Assembly (NCBI GenBank): GCA_043818215.1
Contig: JBDRGC010000023.1
Location: 1,976 to 65,975 of the forward strand
Direction of reading: 5' to 3'
Length of the DNA: 64,000 nt
Origin: Chloroflexota bacterium
GTDB taxonomy: Bacteria > Chloroflexota > Anaerolineae > Anaerolineales > UBA11858
A program made the position numbers and the translations under genes. Position 1 is the stretch's first letter, and the number at the start of each line of letters is the position of its first letter. Shown one piece after another: positions 1,805 to 18,773 of the stretch. Below the pieces are notes generated by a model. That model saw nothing but the letters and a program-made list of their open reading frames with translations. It was not told where the DNA came from and did not search any database.

Positions 1805-2764
1805 TCAATGCCAATGAGAGTCTTGTGATGGCTTATACACCGGTTTGTCAGATCTAATTTCCAATTCGCCCGACATGGCCTTTTTTACTCTCTGTACGGC
1901 TAATTTGTAATATGGCTCCATAATTTCAGATCCCGCTGCTCTTCGTTTATTGATTACGGCTGCAATGGCGGATGTGCCAATACCCATAAAAGGGTCGAAT
2001 ACAATATCGTCCTCGTTTGTCATAGACCACACCAGGCGTTGTACAAGAGCTACTGGAAACTGGCAGGGATGTTCCGTCTTTTCGACATGATTCGCCTTTA
2101 CGTTAGGTATATCCCAAACATCCGATGGATTCTTCCCCTTTGGATTGCCAGAAAGTTTACCCTTGTTAGGCCCTTTGAAATGCCTTTTACCGGGATACTT
2201 TTGAGGTACTCGAACAGGGTCGAGGTTGAAGATATACTCATCAGACTTTGTGAACCAGTTGATAGTTTCGTATCGTCCAGAAAAGCGATTTGCACAGTGT
2301 AATCCGTGCCCAAAATGCCAAACAATCCTGTTTCTAAGCTTTAGCCCCAATTCTTTGAAGTAGCCGTAGAGAAGGATATCAAGTGGAATTATTTCGCCAT
2401 TATCCACATAATTGCCTACTTGCCAACAAATGCTTCCTTCGGGCTTAAGTATGCGGACACATTGTTCAATGACATCAAGTTGCTGTGCCTTGTATACATC
2501 GATATCTGAAATGTCTTCATATTCTTTGCCAATGTTGTAGGGAGGGGATGTAACCACCAATTGAACACTTTCCTTGGGAATTGATTGCATGAAATCCAAG
2601 CAATCGCCATGATACAACGTAACTTGATTTTCGATAGAAAATGTGGATGAGATCACAATGTCCGGCTGACTCGACAAACCTTTCTGTTGAAAACTTTCCC
2701 TGTATTTGTGTTCAGGTATATATGCGTCCAGGCTTTTAAAGAGTGGTAAATCTCTTGTGGTCAC
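1805..2764 (-). CDS. Beta-class N4-cytosine/N6-adenine DNA methyltransferase (N6_N4_Mtase family), apparently orphan
   Basis: 319-aa ORF. Motif IV (SPPYNIGKEY) precedes motif I (FDPFMGIGTSAIAA), which is the beta permutation. SPPY favours m4C. A sampled line has about 43 % G+C. No nuclease-like ORF is adjacent. Confidence 0.85.
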   Translation of the reverse strand: MTTRDLPLFKSLDAYIPEHKYRESFQQKGLSSQPDIVISSTFSIENQVTLYHGDCLDFMQSIPKESVQLVVTSPPYNIGKEYEDISDIDVYKAQQLDVIEQCVRILKPEGSICWQVGNYVDNGEIIPLDILLYGYFKELGLKLRNRIVWHFGHGLHCANRFSGRYETINWFTKSDEYIFNLDPVRVPQKYPGKRHFKGPNKGKLSGNPKGKNPSDVWDIPNVKANHVEKTEHPCQFPVALVQRLVWSMTNEDDIVFDPFMGIGTSAIAAVINKRRAAGSEIMEPYYKLAVQRVKKAMSGELEIRSDKPVYKPSQDSHWH

Positions 2765-2950
2765 GGTATTCTCCAGTAGCTCTGTTCAATTATCGCCAAG
2801 TTATTTCTTCGATTTGCCGGCAGCTTCCGTCCGCGGGATTATTATATCGCCGGGCTGCTGGTTTCGACAAGTTCCTCGATTATTTCGAACACCCAGGGTT
2901 GAAGGCTGGGATCGCGCTCAACAAAATCGACCAGAGCCTGCGCAGAGCTT

Positions 2951-3118
2951 GTCGAAGCTTCGGCTGAACCAGTCCACACTTCGACAAACTCTGTGCAAGC
3001 TCCGGTGGACTTTGTGCATTTTGTTGCTGCTGAAACTTTCGTGAAGCATCCCGTGCGTAGCTCTGCGTAGCGTCCCCTTGGGGGATACCCGCAGGGTGCG
3101 AAGGGGGAAGTCGCCGGA
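2951..3118 (+). repeat. Dispersed element of about 150-170 nt, copy A (core tcggctgaaccagtccacacttcgacaaRctctgtgcaagctccggtggact ... agcatcccgtgcgtagc ... acccgcagggtgcgaaggggga)
   Basis: Near-identical to 10709-10850 in the same orientation. Copy A carries an extra 25-nt internal insert. It contains the stem agtccac/gtggact. Confidence 0.8.
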
Positions 3119-3187
3119 TGCCAAGACGAGACAGACTCAAAAAAAATTTAGAACTGAACAGCTCTACTACTTCTCCTTTATCGAAAA

Positions 3188-3544
3188 CTACACAGCCAGT
3201 GAACGAACTCTAATCTTGTTTACTTCTAACACCACAAATGCCCCCGGCAACCGTTGAGTTTCATATTCCAGCAAATCGCGTAAGTGTGGGATTTTAAGGG
3301 CACGGTCAACTACATCAAACCGCAGCAGAATTACACCTCGCGCAGGTCGCTGAAGCCTGTAAACCAATTCCCCAAAGTCTTTGTCTTCAGTGATCAGCAG
3401 ACGGTTTTCGGAGTAGGCACATGCAAGAATTTCGTCATCAGGCGCGCCATTCAGCGATTCGGCGGCGTACAATATATCATAGCCATCGGAGCGCAAGGCC
3501 TCGACCATTGCCTCATCACAACACTCGTCTGCCAGGAATTTCAT
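3188..3544 (-). CDS. DUF5615 (Mut7-C/PIN-like) putative toxin
   Basis: 118 aa: MKFLADECCD...LLITEDKDFGELV. Its start overlaps the stop of the upstream DUF433 gene, which is the classic DUF433/DUF5615 pairing. Confidence 0.7.
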   Translation of the reverse strand: MKFLADECCDEAMVEALRSDGYDILYAAESLNGAPDDEILACAYSENRLLITEDKDFGELVYRLQRPARGVILLRFDVVDRALKIPHLRDLLEYETQRLPGAFVVLEVNKIRVRSLAV

Positions 3545-3777
3545 AAGCGTTGTCCGCCCGCAAAAATAATCTCTTCCTGGGCCAGATGGTCAGCAGCAAA
3601 CGCGGCGGCGGCATATACATCATCCGGTGTAAGGCGCGGATGATCGTCCAAAATTTCCCCAACCATCATCCCTCCAGCCAACTTGCGCAGAAGGTGCTCT
3701 ACAGTAATTCGCGTACCTGTGATCACAGGCTTGCCAAACATGATGGCGGGATTGATCTCAATGCGATCATGAATCAT
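3541..3777 (-). CDS. DUF433 antitoxin-like protein
   Basis: MIHDRIEINPAIMFGKPVITGTRITVEHLL. I chose the internal ATG at 3777 because AAGGAG lies 6 nt upstream. The ORF track begins at 3813. Confidence 0.7.
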   Translation of the reverse strand: MIHDRIEINPAIMFGKPVITGTRITVEHLLRKLAGGMMVGEILDDHPRLTPDDVYAAAAFAADHLAQEEIIFAGGQRL

Positions 3778-3937
3778 AGGTGACTCCTTCGTTTTATTCT
3801 CGAGTTGTATCAATTCTCAAGCCATTTTATCACGATGCGACCAGAGCGGTCACTCTATCTACCCTACTCCATATACGGGTATGGAAAACGAAACTGGTTT
3901 AATGGTATCATCTCCATATTGTAGGGTAAAAACCATT

Positions 3938-4128
3938 GGGGTTTGACAATGGCACATTTCCAGCAACACTACAACGAATTTGGAAAGGAGCGAATTTTTC
4001 CGTCGCTCGTGGTGATATAAGCCAATTTTGCTATAAACTCGGTAGAAACGGTGTGCCCCGATTCGTTTTTTTCTAAATTCGCTGTAGTGTTGCGCCTAAT
4101 CTGCCATTGTCAAGGTAGGCGGGGTTTC
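3938..4128. mobile_element. MITE-like element of about 190 bp with terminal inverted repeats of about 44 bp
   Basis: The left arm ggggtttgacaatggcacatttccagcaacactacaacgaattt pairs with the right arm aaattcgctgtagtgttgcgcctaatctgccattgtcaagg. The motif TGACAATGGCA recurs at 46110 and 46284. Confidence 0.5.
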
Positions 4129-4264
4129 AATTCACCGTGCGAGCGAGATATAGAAATCTCGGCTACAGACCATCACTCTCGAAGAGGATACGTATTTTTT
4201 TTACAAACCCAAACAGCTATTATCATTAGTGCGCGTGATATGAGTAAAAGAGAACGGAAAACCT

Positions 4265-4519
4265 ATGGACGCAAACACAAATAAATTGAGTAGTATTTCG
4301 AAGGCAGATACGCTTGAGAAGATGGGGGAATTTTGGGACACGCACGACTTTACGGATTATGACACTGGGGCCCCCGATGTCGAGTTCAACGTTATTTGTG
4401 CTGTACCAGTAGAATTGGACCTCTTGTATTCAATCGAAAAGCAGGCACGTTTACGGGGTGTAAGGGTTGAAACATTGGTTAATCTTTGGTTGCATCAGAA
4501 GCTGGTTGAGCAAACCTGA
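4265..4519 (+). CDS. CopG/RHH-type antitoxin-like protein, solitary
   Basis: 84 aa with EFWDTHDFTDYDTGAPDVEF ... RGVRVETLVNLWLHQKL, a pattern typical of small antitoxins. No toxin ORF lies downstream. Confidence 0.55.
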   Translation: MDANTNKLSSISKADTLEKMGEFWDTHDFTDYDTGAPDVEFNVICAVPVELDLLYSIEKQARLRGVRVETLVNLWLHQKLVEQT

Positions 4520-4667
4520 GTTTCAATAGATGGACAGTATTTGAGCAATAACTCGACTCTACCGCCCTTTTGGCACGTCAACCGCCGCCGGTAAAATAGC
4601 ATACAGGTATACAAGGTAGCTGATTGACTGACAAAACTTTCTTGCTTCCTAATTAGGATCGGAAATT

Positions 4668-4755
4668 GGACACGGATTTACCCTTCGGGCACGATGTCAC
4701 GGATTCAACGGATTTTCATGATTTTACATCCATGAAATCCGTTGAATCCGTGTCC
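4668..4755. repeat. Palindromic 'gtacacggat' element, copy 1
   Basis: ggacacggatttacccttcgggcacgatgtcacggattcaacggat...atccgttgaatccgtgtcc. Related copies are at 23651-23718 and 43130-43227. It is nested inside another inverted repeat (ctgacaaaac / gatttgtcag). Confidence 0.8.
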
Positions 4756-4777
4756 GAAAAAGATTTGTCAGCCAACC

Positions 4778-4843
4778 AGACAAGGTAGACAAAGTAGACA
4801 CGGTTTGTCTACCCTGTCTACCCTGTATACTCTGTCTACTCTG
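4778..4843. repeat. Hairpin of 7-8-nt units (GGTAGAC / GTCTACC)
   Basis: agacaaggtagacaaagtagacacggtttgtctaccctgtctaccctgtatactctgtctactctg. The TAG stop of the 4836 gene lies inside the last unit. Confidence 0.8.
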
Positions 4844-5987
4844 CTCCCCAAACCTTCTCCCACTCATCCCTCAACAGATTCCCTAAAACCTGATTGACAC
4901 CCTGCGCGGGCAGCACGTCCCCGTCCGGCTCGACGTACAGCCAGGCGCGGCCGGCGCCATCGGGAGGCGCGTCTTCCTCGGTTTCCAGGGCGATGGGGTT
5001 GCGGGTGGAATAGGGAACGGGCAGGTCCCAGACGAGCGATAAACCCAACTCGGCAGCTAATTCCCCTGCGGTTTGCACGGTCTCACTGACTTCAGTTGTA
5101 GTTCCGCTGAGGGAGAGAGCGTTGGCCCCCATGTCAGCCAATCGTTCCAACAATTCGGGGATTCGGGCCGCGTTTTCAGGGGTCACGGTCAGGTGAACGG
5201 TGGTATGCAAATCTTCGAGCAGCACAGTTCTCAAAGCTTGCCAGGCCTGCTCATTTTCGGGTTGGAGAACGAGCATCAGGTGGTCGAGGCCGGTTTGCAG
5301 CAGCGTGTTCAGGTAATCGGCGTCGGCCAGCCGCAAGCCATCAGTGAGCAGCCCGGTGACCTGCCCGAGGGCATCGGCGTGGGCGATCAGTTCGGGGAGA
5401 TCGTCCCGCAGAGTGGGTTCGCCGCCCGTGAAGCTGATATGGGGGATACCCGCGTCCCAGGCCTTGTCGAGGATGGTCTGCCACTCGCCGGTGGTGAGTT
5501 CGCGGTCGACGCGCCTGGTGGGGGCGGCCTCGGGGTCGGCATCCTCCGGCAAGCGGTAGGTCAGGGCACAGTCGAGACGGTAGGGGGCCGCGATCTCTCC
5601 CGAATAGGGGGCCTGCCTCTCGAAGCCCAGGTAAGTGACCGGGTCCAAATCGGGAATGTCGATCAGGGTTATAAGCCTTTCTTTCAAATCCCGGAAATCT
5701 TGCAGGGCTTGTTTTGCGGAGACTCGATACCGCTGGGCAAATTCACTGGCGATCTGATCGTCAGGCGTATCCTGCACCAGGTGGTAGGCATACTCAGCGG
5801 CGGTTTGATTAAGGTGCAGCACGGTAGAGGCGTTGACGATCAACAAACCGTTGCCGTCCGGTTCGAGACGCAAGTGCAGGCGGTATGGATACTCGGCATC
5901 GGGCGGGGCCTGATAATGGTAAACGCCCACAGGCAAGGGTTCTTTCTGGGTGAAAATACGGCGGATGCTTTCTTGGATAGTTGTCAT
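4836..5987 (-). CDS. Pseudo-radical-SAM/SPASM paralogue (all cluster cysteines lost), with a PqqD/RRE-like N-terminal domain
   Basis: Collinear with the 8545-9984 protein (YRLHLRLEPDGNGLLIVNA..; FTGGEPTLRDDLPELIAHA; YVEPDGDVLPAQG..LGNLL). RCNNDCAHCYN is replaced by RLPEDADPEAA, and the SPASM Cys residues are absent; the whole protein has a single Cys. Start set at MTTIQ (ATG at 5987, preceded by AAAGGAA). Confidence 0.7.
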   Translation of the reverse strand: MTTIQESIRRIFTQKEPLPVGVYHYQAPPDAEYPYRLHLRLEPDGNGLLIVNASTVLHLNQTAAEYAYHLVQDTPDDQIASEFAQRYRVSAKQALQDFRDLKERLITLIDIPDLDPVTYLGFERQAPYSGEIAAPYRLDCALTYRLPEDADPEAAPTRRVDRELTTGEWQTILDKAWDAGIPHISFTGGEPTLRDDLPELIAHADALGQVTGLLTDGLRLADADYLNTLLQTGLDHLMLVLQPENEQAWQALRTVLLEDLHTTVHLTVTPENAARIPELLERLADMGANALSLSGTTTEVSETVQTAGELAAELGLSLVWDLPVPYSTRNPIALETEEDAPPDGAGRAWLYVEPDGDVLPAQGVNQVLGNLLRDEWEKVWGAE

Positions 5988-6221
5988 AGCGGATTCCTTT
6001 CTTACTAATCGGTAATAAGCTGTCAGTGGTCGGTTTGTAGTCGCGCACGAGAGTGCGCCCACCACCGCACCCACTCGCTAAATAGCTACACGAGAGATCA
6101 CTAATTATTGCTCGTTTTTCTGTTGACTACACACCAAATCCGCGCTCGTCCGCGTCCATTTCGGAATGATGTCGGGTAGCGAAAGTCTTTATCAGCATAT
6201 CTGAGCAAAAACGCCTTGGGT

Positions 6222-6551
6222 TCAAGGGGATGAAGCAATTAATGAACGGAGTGCGTCATTCACGGATTCCGAATCAGGGAAATACTTTCGCACGTCTGGC
6301 TCTAACACTATTGTGCCATCTTCTAATCGGAACTGTCGAATGAGTGTTGTTCCATCCTCGTTATGGACTGTGACCGTATGACCTTCGTGATACGCTTTGT
6401 AGTGTTTGCTACGAACCCCGCCACTGAAATCATATTCGGGGCGCATATCATTGAAAATCATCTTTCCTTCGTCAAAGCTGACTTTGTGCTTTCTGAGATT
6501 ATCTTCGGCTTTTTCTTCGTCCCATTCAAATTCGAGTTCCATTATGCTCAT
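6222..6551 (-). CDS. Fusion of the first ~30 aa of a BrnT (DUF497) toxin to a BrnA-like antitoxin; a toxin-antitoxin remnant
   Basis: ELEFEWDEEKAEDNLRKHKVSFDEG is the BrnT N-terminal signature. It is followed directly by RPEYDFSGG...LEPDVRKYFPDSESVNDALRSLI, an antitoxin-type sequence. Confidence 0.5.
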   Translation of the reverse strand: MSIMELEFEWDEEKAEDNLRKHKVSFDEGKMIFNDMRPEYDFSGGVRSKHYKAYHEGHTVTVHNEDGTTLIRQFRLEDGTIVLEPDVRKYFPDSESVNDALRSLIASSP

Positions 6552-6602
6552 TCCTGATTAAGAGTTTACCGCACTTTTGCGCTTTTTTCAACAAGCGGCC
6601 TT

Positions 6603-6672
6603 CCGCCACTCGCCACTCGCCACTCGCTACCCGCCACCCACCACCCGCCACCCGCTATTCGCCATTCGCTAT
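6603..6672. repeat. Heptamer array (GCCACTC/GCCACCC family, complement of GAGTGGC)
   Basis: ccgccactcgccactcgccactcgctacccgccacccaccacccgccacccgctattcgccattcgct. It encodes the last residues (IANGE) and the TAG stop of the acyltransferase. Confidence 0.85.
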
Positions 6673-7557
6673 TATATCGGGCCACGCCGGATAATACATC
6701 AACCACTGCTCCGGGGCCTGACGAATAAAGCCCTCGATGACTTTCAGCACGGCCTCACCGTTGATACGGATTTCTTCCGCCGGGTCGTCGTGCCGTTGCA
6801 TGGGGATGAGATCGGAGAGCAGTAATTCGTAGCGCCCATCTGTGCGTAAGTGGGCCGCACCTACAACCACCGGTACATCAGCTTCGAGCGCCATGCGGAT
6901 ATGTCCCGCGGGCAGGGGGCTGGGATGCCCGAAAAATCTCAGGGTGTGCGCCTTTCTGCGGATGGGACGGTCAACCGCGGTGGCGACCAGTCCGCCGTTG
7001 CGCATGAGTTCGATGGCTTTTTGGTGGGTCGTGTCGCTTACGGGGGTGATGTCCAGCCCGGTAGTGGCCCGGATATCGTTTTGAATCTTATATCCGCCGG
7101 TGGGCTGCCCGTAAGTCAATACCTGCCCGTGCAAACCCCGGTACGCCAGGGATAGCAAAACCATATCGAAGTTGCTCAAATGGGGCGCAGCCAGGAAAAC
7201 GCCCTGTTTTTCAGCCTGGCTTATTTGGATCAATCTCTGCGCAGCGGGGTTATCCACCACCAGCTTTAGCAGCCCATCCCGATTTTGGAGATTATGATAG
7301 AGATCGACGAAGCAGCGCCCTGCGTGTTGGAACACAGCCCGGACAGCATTGTCCAGTTCTTCGGGGGATGACTTTTCCCCGCGCACGACCCACTGGTTGG
7401 CACGCACCGCCTGTACCATCGGTGAGGACTGATTCCCCGCCAGACGACCAGCGACCAGGCCTGAAAGTTGGTAGCCCAGACTGGTGGGCATCATCCGCCC
7501 CAAAAAGAGCCCCAGCCCCACTCCAAAGCGGCTGTTGGTAAATTTTTGTAGGTTCAT
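6655..7557 (-). CDS. Lysophospholipid/lipid-A-type acyltransferase (HtrB/PatA-like LPLAT)
   Basis: 300 aa. HX4D motif is HLSNFD. The overall layout matches the Lip_A_acyltrans family, as recalled from memory. Confidence 0.75.
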   Translation of the reverse strand: MNLQKFTNSRFGVGLGLFLGRMMPTSLGYQLSGLVAGRLAGNQSSPMVQAVRANQWVVRGEKSSPEELDNAVRAVFQHAGRCFVDLYHNLQNRDGLLKLVVDNPAAQRLIQISQAEKQGVFLAAPHLSNFDMVLLSLAYRGLHGQVLTYGQPTGGYKIQNDIRATTGLDITPVSDTTHQKAIELMRNGGLVATAVDRPIRRKAHTLRFFGHPSPLPAGHIRMALEADVPVVVGAAHLRTDGRYELLLSDLIPMQRHDDPAEEIRINGEAVLKVIEGFIRQAPEQWLMYYPAWPDIIANGE

Positions 7558-7566
7558 CTTTAATTC

Positions 7567-7680
7567 AGCATGAATGAATTCATGCTCTGATATGCGAAGT
7601 CCGTTAAAACGGACTGACGGCCATTGGAACGGGTTTGACCAGTTTTGTGCCAGACATCGATTTCAATCGGTGGGCATGTT
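7567..7680. repeat. Cluster of short tetraloop hairpins
   Basis: agcatgaaTGAAttcatgct and agtccgtTAAAacggact. The same hairpin style appears in the 49079-49440 module. Confidence 0.7.
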
Positions 7681-7720
7681 CTCTTCACTCTTCAATCTTC
7701 TCGAATCATTTAGCCGGGGG

Positions 7721-8311
7721 TCAATCCTTGAATAACCTGTAACTCTCTATCAATACGGGCATCCCGCGCAGGATGGTCATTGTGATTGCCAGCCAGGAGA
7801 TGATCAAGGCGATGATATGAATCCAGCCCGCCCAAGCATGATTCAAAATGCGAAATCCCAAAGAGATGGTGACAAATGCAAAAGCAAATCCTTTAACGGT
7901 CCCGTAAAAATCACGCATGAACCGGGATGAGACCAGGGCGCGGCTGATGGGGTGTTTGACTTGATCGAAGGCGGCCTCGCCAGCGCTCATCCCCACGGCC
8001 CGGACAGCATCTGTCAGCGTGCCGCGGGTGATCACGATGATGGGAATGACGATGGGTATCAGCCCCAAATGAGCATACACTACCCATAAAATGATCTCTA
8101 ATGCCCGGTCTACGGCTATATCCAGGGTGCTGCCCAACAGACTGACTTCGCCAAATTTTCTTGCAATGAAGCCGTCAAGCGTATCCATCAAGATAATAAT
8201 CACGATGAAGGGCACACAAAAAAAGATCGCCGTAGCGTTACCGGTGTACAGCAATGCCACGTAAACAAACAACAGCGGAAAACGAAACAAGGTGATTGCG
8301 TTAGCCATCAT
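7721..8311 (-). CDS. CDP-alcohol phosphatidyltransferase (PgsA/PI-synthase-like)
   Basis: DTLDGFIARKFGEVSLLGSTLDIAVD fits D-x2-DG-x2-AR-x8-G-x3-D-x3-D. The protein is polytopic and hydrophobic. Confidence 0.85.
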   Translation of the reverse strand: MMANAITLFRFPLLFVYVALLYTGNATAIFFCVPFIVIIILMDTLDGFIARKFGEVSLLGSTLDIAVDRALEIILWVVYAHLGLIPIVIPIIVITRGTLTDAVRAVGMSAGEAAFDQVKHPISRALVSSRFMRDFYGTVKGFAFAFVTISLGFRILNHAWAGWIHIIALIISWLAITMTILRGMPVLIESYRLFKD

Positions 8312-8318
8312 TAGTGAC

Positions 8319-8564
8319 TTGGTAGATTGGTAGATTGGTAGATTGGTATTTTGGTAGTTGGTAAACAGGTAGATTGGTAATTGGTGATTGGTTACTTGGT
8401 GTTCAGGCAGTGGTCAGCGGTCAGCAGTCGGCGGTCAGCAGTCAACGGTCAGCGGTCAGCGGTCGGCGGTCAGCAGTCAACGGTCGGCGGTCAGCGGTCG
8501 GCGGTCAGCGGTCAGGCGGTCAACCGACCCCTAACTCCTAACCCCTAACCCCTAACTCCCAACC
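8319..8564. repeat. Three concatenated 7-8-nt arrays: GGTAGATT-type, then GGTCAGC/GGTCGGC/AGTCAAC-type, then CCCTAAC-type
   Basis: Read directly. It fills the whole spacer between the rSAM stop and the phosphatidyltransferase start. The rSAM C-terminus (GLGVRG) and its TAG stop are encoded by the CCCTAAC units. Confidence 0.9.
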
Positions 8565-9984
8565 CATGAGCCTCCATCGCCAACGGGCACCCGCCCCCAC
8601 ACTCAGGCAGCATGTCGCACTCGTGGCACTCGTCGGGGACGTATTTCCGCTCCCGCAAGCTGACGGCCAACTCGTGGTTCCAGATCGAGTCCCAGGGATC
8701 TTGCAAAATATTGCCAAGCTGCTGGTAGTACGACTGGCAGGGTATCACGCCGCCGTCCGGTTCCACGCACATATTGTATAGCGCGGCAGTGCAGCCTTTG
8801 ACGCCCAGTTCGAGTTGCATGGGGTCGAATTTGCAGTATTGGGTGGGCGTGTACCAGATCAGGCGTTGGTTGTGAGCAGCGGTTTTTTCGCGGGCCAGTT
8901 CGAGCAGCGCAGGCAATTCGCTCTCACGCAAGCCAGTGCCTACCGTCAGTCCGCGGCCAGAGTAGATCAAGGCGTTCAATCCGAGGGTGGGGACGCCCTC
9001 CTCGGCCAGAAAGTCGAGTGTCTCTCCCAGGGTAGAATAATTATCTTGCAGCATGGTCGTGTTGGTCATCACGTAGAGCGGGCTGTCGAGCACATTGCGC
9101 AGCCCGGCGATAGTTTGCTTCCAGGCGCCAGATTTGCCCACCATTTGATCGTGGATTTGGGCATCGTGGGATTCGACCGTGATTTGAACATGATCCAGCC
9201 CGGCCTCGACCAGAGCATCCAAAAAGCGGCCGTCGCTCAACCTGCGGGCGTTGGTGTTGAGTCCCGTGATCTGTCCGTTGGCCTCGGCGTGAGCCACCAA
9301 CTCGGGGAGATCGTCCCGCAGAGTTGGTTCGCCGCCGGTGAAGATGATGTGCGGGATGCTCAAGTCCCAGGCCCGGTCGATGACGCGCTTCCAACGGGCG
9401 GTGGGCATTTCGGGGTAATCCCGCGGGCGGGCGTTGTAGCAGTGAGCGCAATCGTTGTTGCAGCGGTAGGTTAAGGCCAGATCCATGCGGTAGGGAGCCG
9501 TGGGCCGGGCGCTGAAGGGGGCTGCAATTTCCAGGTCATCCAGATTGCAGGCCGGACAGCCGTCCGGGCGGATGATCTCATCGAAGTCGGCCAGAAATTG
9601 GGTGTAATCGCTTTGGGCCTGGGTTTTCGAGACCCGGTAGCCGCGGGTGACAGCGCGCACCGCCTGGGGTTCGGGAGTCTCTTCCAATATCAGGTAAGCC
9701 ATCATCGCGGCGGTGGGATTGAAGTGCATCACCCGGTTGGCGTTGACGATCAGCGTCCCGTGACCGTCAGGGTCGATGCGCAGGTGGATGCGCGAGCGGT
9801 AGCTGGCGGTCTGACGCGTGTAGTGGTGCAGGCCGGGGGGAACGAGTGGCGAGTGGCGAGTAGCGGGTGGCGGGTGGCGAGTAGCGTCCCTTACAGGGAT
9901 GATAAGTGGCGAATGGCGACCGCCGACCGCTGAGTGGAGATTAGAGATTAGTGATTGGATACCGGCAAGGGGTGACTTTGACAT
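8545..9984 (-). CDS. Radical SAM/SPASM-domain enzyme with a PqqD/RRE-like N-terminal domain
   Basis: CNNDCAHCYN is the CxxxCxxC motif. FTGGEPTLR is present. The C-terminal Cys-rich SPASM region reads CVEPDGGVIPC...CHECDMLPECGGGCP. The first ~50 codons are repeat-derived, so the true start is uncertain. Confidence 0.85.
   Translation of the reverse strand: MSKSPLAGIQSLISNLHSAVGGRHSPLIIPVRDATRHPPPATRHSPLVPPGLHHYTRQTASYRSRIHLRIDPDGHGTLIVNANRVMHFNPTAAMMAYLILEETPEPQAVRAVTRGYRVSKTQAQSDYTQFLADFDEIIRPDGCPACNLDDLEIAAPFSARPTAPYRMDLALTYRCNNDCAHCYNARPRDYPEMPTARWKRVIDRAWDLSIPHIIFTGGEPTLRDDLPELVAHAEANGQITGLNTNARRLSDGRFLDALVEAGLDHVQITVESHDAQIHDQMVGKSGAWKQTIAGLRNVLDSPLYVMTNTTMLQDNYSTLGETLDFLAEEGVPTLGLNALIYSGRGLTVGTGLRESELPALLELAREKTAAHNQRLIWYTPTQYCKFDPMQLELGVKGCTAALYNMCVEPDGGVIPCQSYYQQLGNILQDPWDSIWNHELAVSLRERKYVPDECHECDMLPECGGGCPLAMEAHGLGVRG
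9844..9958. repeat. Composite heptamer arrays (GAGTGGC, GGTCGGC complement, AATCTCT complement) inside the annotated 5' end of the rSAM ORF
   Basis: gagtggcgagtggcgagtagcgggtggcgggtggcgagtagc ... cgaccgccgaccgctga ... gagattagagattagtgattgg. It translates as GGRHSPL..ATRHPPPATRHSPL. Confidence 0.85.
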
Positions 9985-10032
9985 GGTTTTTGCGTGGGGC
10001 GTTGGAGCGCGGTCCGAACAATGATTACCGGG

Positions 10033-10245
10033 TCACTTGATTGGTCCAAACTCACGGCGGCTGATTCCCAGGTCGCGAAGGATGCGGCGTAGGGTACCGG
10101 TCTTGATGTCTCTGGAACCCCAGTTTGGGATAGTTGTGTAGTGATCCAATACAGGATTCCACCAGATGCAGTGTGAGCCAGCACCGGGACGAATGTACTC
10201 GCAACCCAGTTTGCGGAGACGTTTAGCTGCTTCGCGGTATTTCAT
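10033..10245 (-). CDS. hicA: HicA-family mRNA interferase toxin
   Basis: 70 aa: KYREAAKRLRKLGCEYIRPGAGSHCIWWN. It has a 4-nt overlap with the upstream hicB. Confidence 0.85.
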   Translation of the reverse strand: MKYREAAKRLRKLGCEYIRPGAGSHCIWWNPVLDHYTTIPNWGSRDIKTGTLRRILRDLGISRREFGPIK

Positions 10246-10508
10246 GCGAACGCCATCCGCAGCGTGAAGGGAAATTGAAGATTGATCTGCTCCAGATCGG
10301 GATGCAGGGGAGAACCGTTGTCCTGTCGGGCCTGGATCATTGCCCGGACGTTACCGGGGATAGCGCGCATGGCTTCGTCTAGCGTTTCGCCCCAGGCGTG
10401 ACAACCCTGTAGCCAGGGACAGCTTACCTGGTAAACCTGATCCTCTTCCAAATAATCCACGCTAATGGGGATGACGATTTCGTCAATCACAATTGTATTG
10501 TCCATCAC
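10242..10508 (-). CDS. hicB: HicB-family antitoxin (UPF0150 fold)
   Basis: 88 aa: YQVSCPWLQGCHAWGETLDEAMRAI. It is coupled to hicA. Confidence 0.75.
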   Translation of the reverse strand: MMDNTIVIDEIVIPISVDYLEEDQVYQVSCPWLQGCHAWGETLDEAMRAIPGNVRAMIQARQDNGSPLHPDLEQINLQFPFTLRMAFA

Positions 10509-10708
10509 ACGCTCCTATTACATCAATTCCCGGTATGGGAATTTGTTTCGTGAATTATAACCACGTAGCGGGGATTTCAGTATCCCGCAGCGGCGAGATT
10601 TCCTGGCACCACCTGCCATACTATACTGGTACAGGGCATCGTCCCGACCCCAAGTACCATCGTTCTGGGGTGGTATGTCCTTCGGGAGGACAAGTTATCG
10701 GCTACATA

Positions 10709-10850
10709 TCGAAGTGTCGGCTGAACCAGTCCACACTTCGACAAGCTCTGTGCAAGCTCCGGTGGACTTCGTGCATTTCGTTGCTGTGACTTTCGCGCAG
10801 CATCCCGTGCGTAGCCTACCCGCAGGGTGCGAAGGGGGACAGTCGCCGGA
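10709..10850 (+). repeat. Dispersed ~150-nt element, copy B
   Basis: Aligns base-for-base with 2951-3118 apart from a few substitutions and one indel. Confidence 0.8.
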
Positions 10851-10894
10851 GATCGTGATGCAGGGAAGCACCATTGTCCTGGCGGGCCTGGATC

Positions 10895-10933
10895 ACTGAA
10901 TACTACTGAATACTGAATACTGAATACTGAAAA
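10895..10933. repeat. Heptamer array (ACTGAAT)n
   Basis: actgaatactactgaatactgaatactgaatactgaaaacta. It abuts the TAG stop at 10934-10936. Confidence 0.85.
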
Positions 10934-12610
10934 CTACCTACCTCCCCCCGCACAGGCGCAGGCGCACCCGGCGCAGGCGCAGGCGCAACTGGAACCACCG
11001 CTGCTGCTCCGGTACCCGCCGCTGCTGGACGATTTGGGGACCGGGTTGGTCTTATTGGTGATGCTGCTGGTGAAATCGGTGACACTGCCGACCACATCGC
11101 TGCTGAATCCCTGAATGCCGGTGACCATCGAGGCGGCAAACTCTCCGCCGGGCAGACTGGGCATAGAAGTCGCCGAGCGGCCTCCACCAATGCTGGCGGG
11201 GACTACCTTGGGGGCAGTCTTCACCGACCCTGACCGTGACCACCCGGGGTCGTAGCGTCCCCACCACATCGGGACGAAAACCGGGCCGGTGCGGAAGACA
11301 TTTTGCGTGCGGTCGTCGAAGTCTTTGTCGAGCATTGTCCACCCCATGTTTTCATCGAATTGCTGGCTTTTGACCTCGGGGGTATCGGCGGCTTCGACCT
11401 GCTGCCAGGCGCGCTCCATGATTTTGCGATAGTAAGCCACGCTCTCTTTGTGGCTGAAGCCTTTCATCTTTTTGCTTACGCCCTTGATCAGTTTGATCAT
11501 CACCTCGCGCAGTTGTTTGCGCCGCGAGTCTTTTCGTTTGGCAGCGAAGGCCTGGATGAATTCTTCTTCGTAGGGGCGCAGATTCTCCGGCAGGGGGTCG
11601 GCAATTTCTAGTGTAAGTGGGTCACGCTTGATCACGGTGGCGGCTTCTTTTTTTAGCACGGCAAACAAAATCATAGTCAGAATTTTGTCCATGGGCCGTT
11701 CCATCAAAATGGCTGCTTCTATGGCTGTCAGGCCGCGTTTGATGCCGTGCCCCTCGATGCGAATCTTGGGGGGCAGGTATTTCATCTTGCGTTTACGGGT
11801 GCTGACGACACTACCCCATGTAACGAAGGCGATTAGGCCGATAATGCCTCCACAGCACATCAAGCCCATTAGATCTTCTTCGTCGATACCGAGGCGTTCG
11901 AGAAAGCCGGGTGAGTAGATGGCGCTCTCTGGCACATAGGATTTGGGGAACGAAGCCCCAAATTTATACTGAGTGTGCCCATTGGCGTCAGGGTTGTGCC
12001 AGATATAAGCAATGCGCCCTTCGCTATCGAGTTTGGTGTCTGGTTCGGAGGGCCAGTCTCCCGAGGGTGATTCATGCCAGCGGGGTTCGTCGGGCTGCAC
12101 ACCGGGTGGCAGGTGGAAAACTACGGTCATATCTGTGCTGCCATAGACATACGCGGAACCAAACCAACTGGTACCGAAAACCGCACTGGCGTATTTGCTG
12201 TCGGTGGTGTCGGTGTAGAGCACGTTAGAGACGGTGCTCACGTAGACATGGACTGTCCCCGTTTGCCCGGCTGGGATGGCGCGGCCCCCCAAAACGACAG
12301 CCACGCCGCTTCCCGATCCTTCGTAGTCGGAACTAGAGACCGAAACCGAATGCCCGTTTACGTCAGCCTGAATGCTGAACAAATCATAGGAATAATTTGG
12401 CAGGCCCAGATCGACATATTCGATGGAGTGCCCGCTGGGATCATTGTAGAATTCCATCACATAATCCAGGGACATACTGCCATCTTCATTCCAGTAGACG
12501 TGAATAACTTCTTTATCCAGCCGGAAGTAATAATCCTGTGCCAGAGCGCTGCCGGGAATGGACAGTAGAATGGCTATCAAAACCAGAGTAGAGAATATTT
12601 TGTATTTCAT
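10934..12610 (-). CDS. DUF2207-like membrane protein with a C-terminal (Cys-Ala)n tail
   Basis: Signal peptide MKYKIFSTLVLIAILLSIPGSALA. An ectodomain of about 235 aa. Transmembrane segment LMCCGGIIGLIAFVTWGSVV. Basic juxtamembrane stretch. The tail is SSSSGGYRSSSGGSSCACACAGCACACAGGGR. Confidence 0.6.
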   Translation of the reverse strand: MKYKIFSTLVLIAILLSIPGSALAQDYYFRLDKEVIHVYWNEDGSMSLDYVMEFYNDPSGHSIEYVDLGLPNYSYDLFSIQADVNGHSVSVSSSDYEGSGSGVAVVLGGRAIPAGQTGTVHVYVSTVSNVLYTDTTDSKYASAVFGTSWFGSAYVYGSTDMTVVFHLPPGVQPDEPRWHESPSGDWPSEPDTKLDSEGRIAYIWHNPDANGHTQYKFGASFPKSYVPESAIYSPGFLERLGIDEEDLMGLMCCGGIIGLIAFVTWGSVVSTRKRKMKYLPPKIRIEGHGIKRGLTAIEAAILMERPMDKILTMILFAVLKKEAATVIKRDPLTLEIADPLPENLRPYEEEFIQAFAAKRKDSRRKQLREVMIKLIKGVSKKMKGFSHKESVAYYRKIMERAWQQVEAADTPEVKSQQFDENMGWTMLDKDFDDRTQNVFRTGPVFVPMWWGRYDPGWSRSGSVKTAPKVVPASIGGGRSATSMPSLPGGEFAASMVTGIQGFSSDVVGSVTDFTSSITNKTNPVPKSSSSGGYRSSSGGSSCACACAGCACACAGGGR

Positions 12611-12867
12611 AGAGGCCTCCGTGAAGACGTGAAACGTGATCCCGAAAGAACATCGGGACGATGTGCGTGACGAGTGAAGCGTGGGGCGTGGAGCGTGAAG
12701 TGGCGACTCATATTGTAATCATTCAGTCCGTGGTGAAAGCTACTTGAATAGAACACGGACACTTGCACCTGCGGCATACTTATGCAGGCACTGCGCACTT
12801 GCACCTGCGGCAAGTGTCCGCGTTCTATTTTACCAGGGAACTGAATGCTTACCTCACATTTCACGCA

Positions 12868-13239
12868 TTACCATTTCGGTTCTTCCGTCAATTGATAGGT
12901 CGTGTTGCAGTAAGGGCAGCTGACTACCGGGGCGCCGGCCACCATTTTGATATTGTCCAGGGTGAGTGCGCCCCCGCAGGATTGACATTTCATTGTGTCC
13001 AGGCTGACATCGCCGGGCAAGTCGATTTTCAGGGTCACGTCGCCCCCCTCCCCCCCCGCGGCGGTTGGCTGGCGGCGGCTGGCGAACCAGATCACGCCGA
13101 AGCCGATCCCCACGCTGATGACACCAACCACTAGCCACCCAAGCTGCCCATCAGGGCTGAATGTAGCCCAGATGAACAGCACGCCAAAGAATATCAGAAT
13201 AGCTGCAAAAATATAAGCGATGATTTTTCCTGCTGACAT
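12868..13239 (-). CDS. Small membrane protein with a C-terminal zinc ribbon
   Basis: Two hydrophobic helices, then CQSCGG...CPYCN. Confidence 0.5.
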   Translation of the reverse strand: MSAGKIIAYIFAAILIFFGVLFIWATFSPDGQLGWLVVGVISVGIGFGVIWFASRRQPTAAGGEGGDVTLKIDLPGDVSLDTMKCQSCGGALTLDNIKMVAGAPVVSCPYCNTTYQLTEEPKW

Positions 13240-13278
13240 AAGAACCTCCGTTGATTGCTAAACAAATCGAAAATGCTG

Positions 13279-13974
13279 TTAAAAAATTCCTGAAATTTGA
13301 CTCTGAGTTTCGTCGTCCGAGGCGCTGATTTCGATCAGTTCTCCGGTGGCGACGAACACCGTGCGCTCGCAGATATTGGTGACCCGGTCGGCGGCGCGTT
13401 CCAGGTTGTGTGCCACCCACAAAAGGTAAGTTGCCCGGTCGATTGTGGATGGATCGGAAATCATAAAAGTCAGCAGATCTCGGTATACCTGGTTGTACAG
13501 GGCATCAACTTCGTCGTCTTCTTTGGGGATAGCCAGAGCCGACTCTGCGTCCCCAGCCACGAAAGCGCCCAGGGCACGGTGAAGCATATCGGTGGTGAGT
13601 TCTGCCATGCGCGGCACGTCGATTAGTGGTTTGATGAGGGGATCATCTCCCATGCGGATATTGATCAACGCAATCCCTTTGGCGTAGTCGCCCATACGTT
13701 CCAGTTCGCTGGCGATATCCAATACAGATGCCAAAATGCGCAGGTCGCGGGCCATGGGCTGCTGGGTTGCGATGATTATCAAGGCGTCATTTTCGATCTC
13801 GAATCGCTTTTCGTTGATTTGTTTGTCACCTGCGTAAATGCGGCGGGCTGCTTTCAGGTCGCGGCGTTCGAGTGACTCAACGGCGTCCAGAATGGCCTGC
13901 TCGACCATGCTTCCCAGCGCGAGAACTTCGTCGAGCAGTTTTTGTATCTGGCGGTCTAAAGTTTCTCTTGTCAT
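13279..13974 (-). CDS. phoU: Phosphate-uptake regulator PhoU
   Basis: MTRETLDRQIQKLLDEVLALGSMVE...DKQINEKRFEIEND...ELERMGDYAKGIA...LERAADRVTNICE shows the duplicated PhoU repeats. Start set at the ATG at 13974; the ORF-track extension to 14067 has no support. Confidence 0.9.
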   Translation of the reverse strand: MTRETLDRQIQKLLDEVLALGSMVEQAILDAVESLERRDLKAARRIYAGDKQINEKRFEIENDALIIIATQQPMARDLRILASVLDIASELERMGDYAKGIALINIRMGDDPLIKPLIDVPRMAELTTDMLHRALGAFVAGDAESALAIPKEDDEVDALYNQVYRDLLTFMISDPSTIDRATYLLWVAHNLERAADRVTNICERTVFVATGELIEISASDDETQSQISGIF

Positions 13975-15252: not shown

Positions 15253-15261
15253 GGATAATTG

Positions 15262-15349
15262 ACCACTGACCGCCGACAGCCGACCGCTGACCGGCCGACC
15301 ACCGACCGCTGTCGGCTGTCGGCCGTCGGCCGTCGGCTGTCGGCGGTCA
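15262..15349. repeat. Heptamer hairpin (GCCGACC-type arm paired with GGTCGGC-type arm) filling the pstA-pstB spacer
   Basis: gaccgccgacagccgac ... gtcggctgtcggcggtc form perfect 17-bp outer arms. The array ends 4 nt from the pstA stop. Confidence 0.9.
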
Positions 15350-16239: not shown

Positions 16240-16430
16240 AAAGTCAGTAGATCAGTAGATCAGTAAATCAGTAGATCAGTAAACCAGTAGATCAGTAAAC
16301 CAGTAGATCAGTAAACCAGTAGATCAGTAAACCAGTAAACCAGTTCTCCTGATCCCTAGTCCCTGATCCCTGATTTACTGATTCCTGATCTACTGATTTA
16401 CTGATTCCTGGTTTCCTGATTCCTGATTCC
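16240..16430. repeat. Octamer/heptamer hairpin (CAGTAGAT/CAGTAAAC arm against CTGATTTA/CTGATCC arm) filling the pstC-pstA spacer
   Basis: The left arm has about 12 units of 8 nt. The right arm is partly complementary (aatcagtaaatcagtagatcagg). It ends 1 nt before the pstC TAA. Confidence 0.9.
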
Positions 16431-16431
16431 T

Positions 16432-17336: not shown

Positions 17337-17650
17337 CGTGGAGCGTGGAGCGGGAAGCAGGAAGCGGGAAGCGGGAAGCAGGAAGCAGGAAGCGGGAAGC
17401 GGGAAGCAGGAAGCGGGAAGCGGGAAGCAGGAAGCGGGAAGCGGGAAGTGGGAAGCGGGAAGCAGGAAGCGGGAAGCGGGAAGCGGGAAGCGGGAAGCGG
17501 GAAGCGGGAAGCGGGAAGCGGGAAGCGGGAAGCGGGAAGCGGGAAGCGGATTTTATCCCACTCCGCTACGCTTCGTGGACTACGTTACGCATCACGTTTT
17601 CACGTTTTCACGTCTAACGTCTTCGCGCAGCATCCCCGAAGGGGGGCACG
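17337..17650. repeat. pstS-pstC spacer: (CGTGGAG)x2, (GGGAAGC/AGGAAGC)x28, core atcccactccgctacgcttcg, CGTGAAA-type units, and motif cttcgcgcagcatccccgaagggg
   Basis: The GGGAAGC array spans 17352-17547, which is 196 nt or exactly 28 units by hand count. Confidence 0.9.
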
Positions 17651-18543: not shown

Positions 18544-18597
18544 CAGCGCGGGATTATAGCCGTAAATCATGGCGTGGGCAAGTGTGGGAGGGCGGGG

Positions 18598-18773
18598 GCT
18601 AGAGGGTAGAGGGCAGAGGGTAGAGGGTAGAGGGGTTAGGGATCAGGGACTAGGGACAAGGGATCAGGCAGCCTAATATACTATATACTGGCTCCTGTCC
18701 TGGTTCCTGGTTCCTAGTCCCTGGTTCCTGGTTTCCTAGCCCCTGGTTCCTAGCCCCTAGTTCCTGGTTCCTG
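18598..18773. repeat. Large imperfect palindrome of heptamers (TAGAGGG, TCAGGGA/CTAGGGA against CCTGGTT/CCTAGTC) with the AT-rich loop taatatactatatact
   Basis: It occupies nearly the whole divergent pstS / pstB2 control region. Confidence 0.85.

Follow-up and report, generated by a model that had tools for sequence, protein, structure and literature searches.

Radical S-adenosylmethionine (SAM) enzymes that are guided by a RiPP recognition element (RRE; RiPP, ribosomally synthesised and post-translationally modified peptide) and carry a SPASM domain are known as makers of small peptide antibiotics and peptide-derived cofactors. Among them, MftC modifies the very C-terminal end of its substrate, and QhpD introduces Cys thioether cross-links into a polypeptide that stays in a functional complex. 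In the GG-Bacteroidales system, which was defined bioinformatically, a radical SAM/SPASM enzyme is paired with a paralogue that lacks the Cys ligands. In this study, a 64,000-nucleotide stretch of a Chloroflexota contig (JBDRGC010000023.1, positions 1,976 to 65,975; hereafter the window, in whose numbering positions are given) was analysed, in which a run of genes at 4836-9984 encodes two proteins of the radical SAM fold, rSAM_A and rSAM_B, with two lipid enzymes between them. The best explanation for this run is a composite of a conserved radical SAM system and a separate phospholipid cassette. rSAM_A and rSAM_B belong to a widespread four-gene system that also comprises a zinc-ribbon membrane protein (zn123) and a 558-residue single-pass membrane protein (up558), and the RRE/radical SAM/SPASM machinery appears dedicated to the tail of this full-size membrane protein. 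The enzyme class is already known; the substrate type, the core sequence, the set of partners and the phylogenetic spread are new.

The protein up558 (10934-12610, minus strand) ends in the Cys-Ala tail CACACAGCACACAGGGR, which is encoded together with the stop codon at 10934-10987 and is the proposed modified core. A genome scan yielded 403 loci that encode a relative of rSAM_A, and the window proteins were mapped for synteny onto the best 80 of these with flanks of 8 kb on either side; all 80 derive from metagenome-assembled genomes of Anaerolineales or other Chloroflexota, among them one of Anaerolinea thermophila (L040) that carries the system. Wherever these loci reach the C-terminus of the up558 homologue, the protein ends in ...(CA)3-5-G-CACACA-GGGR (amino acids) followed by the stop codon. 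The amino acids of the tail are invariant in 91 copies. The same copies use TGC and TGT for Cys, all four synonyms for both Ala and Gly, six codons for Arg and all three stop codons. With such free use of synonyms, the constraint must act on the tail peptide, and a repeat maintained at the DNA level is ruled out.

A search of 1.84 billion representative proteins (threshold E 1e-3) placed at least 861 clusters at 50% identity, comprising thousands of sequences, in the up558 family, all of them annotated as hypothetical and devoid of a Pfam domain. The tail is kept in 96 full-length representatives with overall identities down to 31%, its commonest form being CACACACAGCACACAGGGR with seven Cys, and variants with Val or Ser at some positions occur in Aigarchaeota and Bathyarchaeota. 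Over the span from Anaerolineae to Bathyarchaeia the tail is near-constant, with the remainder of the protein having drifted to about 30% identity, and a constraint that strong points to a precise chemical product. Several loci contain two or three tandem up558 paralogues, each with the tail. The family is common in abundant, poorly cultivated organisms of sediment and sludge, and its short, defined target offers a tractable way into new radical SAM chemistry and membrane function.

The order zn123, up558, rSAM_A, rSAM_B emerged as the conserved unit from a comparison of the 80 genome loci and of 120 metagenome contigs returned by a reverse scan, the sole query of which was a degenerate DNA pattern that encodes CACACAGGGR and ends in a stop codon. 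In all of the genome loci up558 is followed by rSAM_A and then rSAM_B wherever the contig reaches, and in most relatives the rSAM_A gene begins about 10-140 bp after the stop codon of the tail. rSAM_A and rSAM_B are adjacent (at most 103 bp apart) in 34 of 76 loci. Elsewhere the gap between them holds lipid genes, a PAS-like protein together with a 337-residue protein, an ATP-grasp ligase, M28 or M20 peptidases or a family 2 glycosyltransferase (GT2). Starting from the tail DNA alone, an rSAM_A homologue was recovered on 103 of the 120 contigs. On 94 of these it follows the tail gene, and on nine it precedes it, in the order A-B'-up558. Most contigs that lack rSAM_A are too short; six have at least 1.5 kb of downstream sequence and no rSAM_A, and five of these start so near the tail gene that an upstream copy would fall off the contig, the sixth being L136. 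On a Bathyarchaeota contig (L205), zn123 with the ending TEEPKW, up558 with the tail CACACVSCACVCACVSCACACAGGRVG and rSAM_A lie in overlapping reading frames, and on two distant contigs (L209 and L210) the order is zn123-A-(B')-up558. Since the linkage outlasts both changes in gene order and the jump from bacteria to archaea, the gene neighbourhoods provide strong evidence for a functional unit of the tail protein and rSAM_A.

Further genes accompany the system in particular lineages. A SAM-dependent methyltransferase is encoded right after the tail-protein gene or genes in L209 (11654-12463) and L210 (9845-10513), which suggests an extra tailoring step in these lineages. A recurrent insert between rSAM_A and rSAM_B, seen in L022 (9233-10669), L043 (3871-5232) and at least nine other genome loci, encodes a PAS-like protein of about 113 residues and a protein of about 337 residues that has a C-terminal transmembrane (TM) helix and belongs to no Pfam family. 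Within that clade, this cassette may serve the system as an accessory.

The catalytic enzyme of the system, rSAM_A (8545-9984, minus strand, 479 residues), combines an RRE (residues ~50-140, 9565-9837), a radical SAM core with the motif CX3CX2C (C175/C179/C182, 9439-9462) and a full SPASM domain (residues 384-466, 8587-8835). Pfam matches were obtained to Radical_SAM (E 2.5e-26), SPASM (PF13186, E 2.1e-9) and PqqD (23.7 bits, cutoff 23.4). The protein is 64-80% identical across Anaerolineales. C175-x3-C179-x2-C182 is invariant in 46 homologues, CX3CX2C is kept in 156 of 166 orthologues, and eight further Cys in the C-terminal region (C384, C398, C406, C416, C453, C456, C462 and C466) are invariant as well. 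When a profile of the N-terminal domain (residues 48-142 and relatives) was searched against all Protein Data Bank (PDB) sequences, it matched the lasso-peptide RRE TfuB1 (6jx3_B) with E 6.6e-5, and an AlphaFold2 (AF2) model shows strands at 51-88 followed by three helices at 90-137, with a predicted local distance difference test (pLDDT) score of 85-97. The best Foldseek neighbours of the model are SkfB, SuiB, PqqE, CteB and anSME. The superpositions with SuiB and CteB include the N-terminal domain, and GDGT-MAS ranks 23rd. In PDB sequence searches PqqE (E 4e-20) and SkfB were closest, and the match to GDGT-MAS (7tol, E 3.5e-8) covers only the core. In its CX3CX2C motif, its SPASM domain with Cys ligands and its PqqD-like RRE, rSAM_A agrees with the RRE-dependent radical SAM/SPASM maturases, and a conserved core is co-encoded beside it in the form of the Cys-Ala tail, its putative substrate. 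Both sequence and model suggest that rSAM_A resembles a peptide maturase more than a lipid enzyme.

Family models were taken from NCBIfam (June 2026), Pfam, PADLOC and Rfam. None of these covers the four-gene system, and no protein of the 4836-9984 run reaches a curated equivalog model. An assignment of rSAM_A as PqqE was rejected, with 120.5 bits for TIGR02109 (cutoff 381) and no pqq genes in the run of the window or in the 80 loci. The scores for curated radical SAM equivalogs, including those for PQQ, mycofactocin, heme d1/Ahb and sactipeptides, are all far under their cutoffs. Equally rejected was a lipid enzyme of the Tes/GDGT-MAS type, for which NF045702 reaches 30.6 bits on rSAM_B (cutoff 450) and falls outside the top 25 models of rSAM_A. 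PADLOC gave only partial generic viperin-core matches for rSAM_A and rSAM_B and none for the other four proteins, and a defence system was discarded. Residues 1 to ~45 of rSAM_A form a low-confidence extension, in which an in-frame heptamer array (9843-9886) encodes ...ATRHPPPATRHSPL.... The stretch that connects the RRE to the radical SAM core contains a CPxC pair (residues 143-146, 9547-9558), which is absent from rSAM_B; its C143 is invariant in the 46 homologues.

The paralogue rSAM_B (4836-6074, minus strand), which probably starts at the ATG at 5990, is 39% identical to rSAM_A (E 1e-81) and matches Radical_SAM with E 2.6e-10 and PqqD with 21.4 bits. The ligands of all three iron-sulfur clusters are replaced, and the protein stops half-way through the SPASM region. 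None of 104 rSAM_B orthologues contains CX3CX2C, and the median number of Cys is 2 compared with 13 in rSAM_A. PqqD is matched by 33 of 35 orthologues (best E 2e-7) and SPASM by none. Because the family has no CX3CX2C and yet keeps the RRE, a GGE motif and many invariant positions, rSAM_B is taken to be a pseudo-enzyme under conservation, for which the simplest role would be that of a scaffold or of a chaperone for the substrate.

Several claims made earlier from the sequence of the run alone can be judged against these results. The proposal that both radical SAM-fold proteins carry a PqqD-type RRE is borne out by Pfam, by the rSAM_B orthologues, by the TfuB1 match, by AF2 and by Foldseek, and the RRE sequence that had been quoted is present in rSAM_A. 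The description of rSAM_B as Cys-less holds for the cluster ligands, whereas one Cys, in the motif RLDCALTYR, is nearly invariant in the family. The option of a radical SAM enzyme acting on lipid tails, as Tes or GDGT-MAS do, lost ground to the peptide maturases, which are matched much better. Finally, no convincing precursor had been noticed, but a strong candidate is the Cys-Ala tail of up558, the gene of which lies outside 4836-9984. The usual spacer between the genes of the tail protein and rSAM_A leaves no room for a small precursor gene of its own, and such a gene was rejected.

The first gene of the system encodes zn123 (12868-13239, minus strand), a protein of 123 residues with two TM helices and a cytoplasmic four-Cys zinc-ribbon (CxxC...CPxC). 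Where the flanking sequence is long enough, its gene directly precedes that of the tail protein in nearly all genome loci and in 57 of 62 metagenome contigs. Its own C-terminus reads ...TEEPKW in 93 of 142 copies and ends in PKW in nearly all. Family searches of zn123 gave only weak zinc-ribbon matches. The CxxC...CPxC knuckles resemble rubredoxin-type sites, and zn123 could conceivably act as a membrane anchor or donate electrons.

The AF2 model of up558 (mean pLDDT 82) comprises, after the signal peptide, an extracytoplasmic β-sandwich (residues 29-222), a TM helix (244-277) and, on the cytoplasmic side, a winged-helix and helical domain (296-460), then two helices (488-521), a Gly/Ser linker and the tail. 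No Pfam or NCBIfam family and no sequence relative in the PDB was found for the protein, and the Foldseek likeness of its ectodomain to the N-domains of M1 aminopeptidases and to ribophorin I is that of a generic β-sandwich and gives no functional hint. An assignment to TIGR04222 (near_uncomplex) was rejected at 15.7 bits (E 0.009; at least 43 needed), and just 3 of 57 family members match this model at all. The TM helix is followed by the basic stretch RKRKMKYLPPKIR. From the signal peptide, the basic residues after the membrane span (positive-inside rule) and the AF2 model, the tail is predicted to be cytoplasmic, on the same side as the enzymes; radical SAM enzymes work in the cytoplasm. 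The best-conserved stretch near the tail is the segment LPGxxFAAS...F(T)xxxTxxTNPxP (residues 484-525, 11036-11161, minus strand), in which P484, P487, G488, F491, A492, G498, G508, F513, T518, T521, N522, P523 and P525 are invariant and the motif of which is visible in distant representatives. Judged by its sequence, the C-terminus of up558 has a leader-linker-core layout, with this segment as the presumed leader-like recognition sequence of the RRE.

In the proposed mechanism the RRE of rSAM_A, and perhaps also that of rSAM_B, would bind the LPGxxFA...TNPxP segment about 35 residues upstream of the tail, and the Gly/Ser linker would let the tail reach the active site of rSAM_A. There the enzyme would cleave SAM reductively and modify the Cys-Ala core, with rSAM_B serving as a non-catalytic scaffold or chaperone. 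The modification may consist of several Cys-to-carbon thioether cross-links as in sactipeptides and ranthipeptides, and the two Cys-Ala blocks, split by Gly, could form a hairpin by pairing. Possible alternatives are formylglycine formation, epimerisation and a reaction at the C-terminus that yields a cofactor. The product would most likely remain attached to the membrane protein.

The closest likeness is to the sactipeptide and ranthipeptide maturases (AlbA, SkfB, CteB and the Tte1186/PapB type), which share the RRE, the CX3CX2C core, the Cys of the SPASM auxiliary clusters and a co-encoded Cys-rich substrate, and which provide with SkfB and CteB two of the best sequence and structure matches of rSAM_A. 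Their substrates, however, are peptides of 30-60 residues, whereas here the substrate would be the tail of a 560-residue membrane protein. The core is built from four amino acids, Cys, Ala, Gly and Arg. The system includes a paralogue without clusters and a membrane protein with a zinc-ribbon, a protease or exporter is absent, and no curated maturase model is reached. SuiB, which forms the Lys-Trp cross-link of streptide, gives the best full-length superposition (447-477 aligned columns including the RRE), but its identity to rSAM_A is only 16-18%, and its carbon-carbon cross-link chemistry and its substrate differ. PqqD-type recognition is shared with PqqE/PqqD and MftC/MftB, and the PqqE model ranks second among the NCBIfam models for rSAM_A; here, in contrast, the RRE is fused to the enzyme, and no pqqA, pqqB, pqqC or mycofactocin genes are nearby. 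QhpC, the substrate of QhpD, is a small periplasmic subunit with Cys-Asp/Glu links and not the tail of a membrane protein. The combination of a catalytic radical SAM/SPASM enzyme with a paralogue lacking Cys ligands recurs in the bioinformatically defined pseudo-SAM/SPASM family TIGR04347 of haloarchaea (115.9 bits for rSAM_A and 51.3 for rSAM_B, cutoff 525), but substrates and taxa differ both there and in the GG-Bacteroidales system. Tes and GDGT-MAS share the radical SAM fold, with weak matches, and have no RRE. In the literature the tail motif, the system and the lipid gene trio discussed below were found undescribed; subscription journals were thinly covered, and absence there is no proof.

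The two lipid genes between rSAM_A and rSAM_B encode a CDP-alcohol phosphatidyltransferase (7721-8311, minus strand; PF01066, E 8e-15, 55.9 bits, cutoff 22) with an intact D-x2-DG-x2-AR-x8-G-x3-D-x3-D motif, read from the translation as DTLDGFIARKFGEVSLLGSTLDIAVD, and a PatA/HtrB-family acyltransferase (6655-7557, minus strand; PF03279 Lip_A_acyltrans, E 2e-17), which always follows the phosphatidyltransferase in the loci examined. Judging by their relatives, they make up two thirds of a phospholipid cassette that is independent of the radical SAM system. The third gene of this cassette encodes a PAP2 phosphatase and occurs in L001-L006, L009, L026, L054, L081-L084, L156 and L206-L208. In the window the PAP2 slot is occupied by an open reading frame (ORF) at 6222-6551 (minus strand) that encodes 109 residues and matches only the N-terminal third of BrnT (29.5 bits, cutoff 34.5); a terminator-like hairpin overlaps its stop codon. 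A search of the window for a remnant of PAP2 found none, and sequence comparison with the relatives indicates that the gene was lost there and that the BrnT-like remnant and heptamer repeats stand in its place. The trio of CDP-OH_P_transf, Lip_A_acyltrans and PAP2 genes also stands alone, with unrelated neighbours and no radical SAM gene, in L081-L084 and L208. Phosphatidyltransferase homologues of 63-65% identity occur in contigs of the Desulfobacula/Desulfobacteraceae type, and the stand-alone trio of Desulfobacterota-type contigs is often found beside VTT/DedA-domain genes. This suggests a phospholipid cassette that is shared horizontally between Chloroflexota and Desulfobacterota-type genomes.

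Lipid genes lie between rSAM_A and rSAM_B in 10 of the 80 genome loci, always with PAP2 as third gene in those relatives, and adjoin the system in 4 of the 120 metagenome contigs. In a tree of rSAM_A, 11 of 12 cassette-bearing sequences (nine genome loci, the window and the metagenome locus L153) fall in one clade with a single loss (L008), which is consistent with one insertion of the cassette between rSAM_A and rSAM_B in one Anaerolineales subclade. The cassette also adjoins the system in a second clade. In L054 it again separates rSAM_A from rSAM_B, whereas in L156, with a phosphatidyltransferase of only 43% identity, it is placed upstream of zn123 in divergent orientation. The corresponding position in L157 is taken by genes for a GT2 and an acyltransferase. 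In L206 a sulfotransferase gene (Sulfotransfer_2, 8151-8816) comes after the lipid trio, between rSAM_A and the presumed rSAM_B.

The structures of PgsA, PssA and phosphatidylinositol phosphate (PIP) synthase all match the phosphatidyltransferase weakly, and no head group was assigned. The order of PAP2 after the lipid pair in the relatives is that expected for a phosphatase of phosphatidylglycerophosphate or PIP, as in the PgsA-PgpB route, but a phosphatidylglycerol pathway was rejected at 40.7 bits for TIGR00560 (cutoff 109), with PAP2 absent from the window and present in relatives. A phosphatidylinositol mannoside (PIM) route was rejected likewise: the PIP synthase model NF045883 gives 27.8 bits (cutoff 170), no glycosyltransferase ORF is found at 4836-13239, and the PIM acyltransferase PatA, although the best curated and solved match of the acyltransferase (PDB E 9e-5), reaches 69.4 bits in NF005919 (cutoff 209). 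The original prediction had seen an echo of the actinobacterial pgsA1-Rv2611c(patA)-pimA arrangement. The order of phosphatidyltransferase and acyltransferase is indeed alike, but all curated cutoffs are missed, and the run contains no mannosyltransferase or inositol-phosphate synthase. Its account of four genes with their domains on the minus strand was confirmed for all ORFs of the run, to which the BrnT-like remnant is added as a fifth ORF. The four genes are found together not in the window alone but elsewhere too, and conserved synteny exists; the conserved unit, however, is zn123, up558, rSAM_A and rSAM_B without the lipid pair. The claim that the radical SAM pair and the lipid pair form one module is poorly supported, given the small number of loci with lipid genes in the gap and the trio that stands alone in unrelated genomes, and the label of a lipid gene cluster was corrected accordingly, with a separate, mobile three-gene phospholipid cassette identified.

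The reading favoured here, in which rSAM_A relies on recognition by the RRE and on rSAM_B as a partner to modify the Cys-Ala tail, and in which the modified tail remains on the membrane protein, is considered fairly probable from the sequences. Several points weigh against it. The tail is disordered in the AF2 model, and L136 (1484-3325) encodes a tail protein with no zn123 or radical SAM gene from 1.5 kb upstream to 5 kb downstream, which is probably an orphan extra copy. rSAM_B is missing from the Bathyarchaeota locus L205 and is hence not universally required. Thioether formation, although the most likely chemistry, is the weakest step, drawn wholly by analogy from SPASM enzymes acting on Cys-rich peptides. 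The recurrence of the lipid cassette beside the system in at least two clades and in two arrangements is more than expected from chance adjacency, and some coupling is possible. A single pathway of the radical SAM pair and the lipid genes would yield either a phospholipid that is modified or cross-linked, or a peptide or protein joined to a phospholipid, for example a tail with a phosphatidyl or acyl group. In the window and in about a dozen relatives, these genes share one direction and are closely spaced, and tail and lipid enzymes would both be at the cytoplasmic face of the membrane. This pathway is nonetheless regarded as very unlikely, since lipid genes are lacking within 8 kb in 70 of the 80 genome loci and on the covered stretch of 116 of the 120 metagenome contigs, the trio occurs in genomes without a radical SAM gene nearby, and the gap between rSAM_A and rSAM_B also houses unrelated cassettes. 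The RRE of rSAM_A and its far better match to peptide maturases than to GDGT-MAS or Tes, as well as the loss of PAP2 from the window, point in the same direction.

The seven-Cys tail could also bind a metal or an iron-sulfur cluster without being modified covalently. rSAM_A and rSAM_B would then act on zn123, another protein or a small molecule, and a shared membrane complex would explain the co-location. Alternating Cys on a β-strand place their thiols on one face, as in metallothionein-like CxCxC, the invariant C-terminus ...EEPKW of zn123 is a conceivable substrate, and two RREs are present for one obvious substrate. Yet the tail is always at the exact C-terminus, after a flexible linker and a conserved segment, as expected for leader, linker and core, and its linkage to rSAM_A outlasts changes in gene order and a domain-level phylogenetic jump. 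To our knowledge, moreover, every characterised case of an RRE-radical SAM-SPASM enzyme co-encoded with a Cys-rich C-terminal sequence (AlbA, SkfB, CteB, QhpD, MftC) is a pair of enzyme and substrate, and an unmodified site is held to be rather unlikely. If, on the other hand, up558 were a very large carrier or leader from which a modified core of about 17 residues is cleaved as a small RiPP natural product, the Gly-Gly directly ahead of the core in many copies, the M28 or M20 peptidase genes between rSAM_A and rSAM_B in L009, L026, L047, L056 and L076, and the tandem copies, which are typical of precursors in RiPP clusters, would find an explanation. No conserved protease or exporter accompanies the system, however, and the residues before the core vary (GG, SS, RS, HS) without a fixed cleavage motif. 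Because the body of 540 residues, with its extracytoplasmic domain, is conserved and diversifies in paralogues while the tail is unchanged, up558 looks like a functional protein with a constant appendage, and release of the core appears quite improbable. An extension of the favoured reading is put forward tentatively. It takes the system as cross-domain (Chloroflexota, Bathyarchaeota/Aigarchaeota and at least one further lineage), converting the cytoplasmic (Cys-Ala)n tail of a membrane protein into a protein-tethered structure without a described counterpart, with the dead paralogue and the zinc-ribbon protein as obligatory components and with coupling to the phospholipid cassette in some lineages. 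Candidate products would be a thioether ladder made by radical chemistry, including lanthionine-like links from Cys-S to Ala-Cβ, or a novel cofactor with a redox or metal-binding function.

When 4500-13600 was scanned for promoters and terminators, the counts did not differ from those in shuffled sequences, so that operon boundaries could not be set, and Rfam returned no match in the whole window. Some features near the system are local and are not part of it. A hicB-hicA toxin-antitoxin cassette (10033-10508, minus strand; HicB_lk_antitox E 6e-7, hicA ORF read from the sequence) separates the tail protein from rSAM_A in this window only, and a partial copy of the 3' end of hicB at ~10850-10893, just upstream of it, looks like an insertion scar. 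Just downstream of rSAM_B lies a low-GC islet at 1805-4519 (0.44-0.48, compared with 0.55-0.61 nearby), which contains a DNA-methyltransferase-like ORF (1805-2764), a DUF433/DUF5615 (PIN-like) pair (3188-3813) and a CopG-like antitoxin (4265-4519). Many intergenic spacers are filled by 7-nucleotide tandem arrays, for example of CGCCACT (9 copies), CAGCGGT (16 copies) and AGCGGGA (28.7 copies). Arrays of this kind are located at 6604-6669, 8408-8522, 9843-9886, 10904-10935, 15261-15348, 16244-16431, 17349-17549 and 18588-18773.

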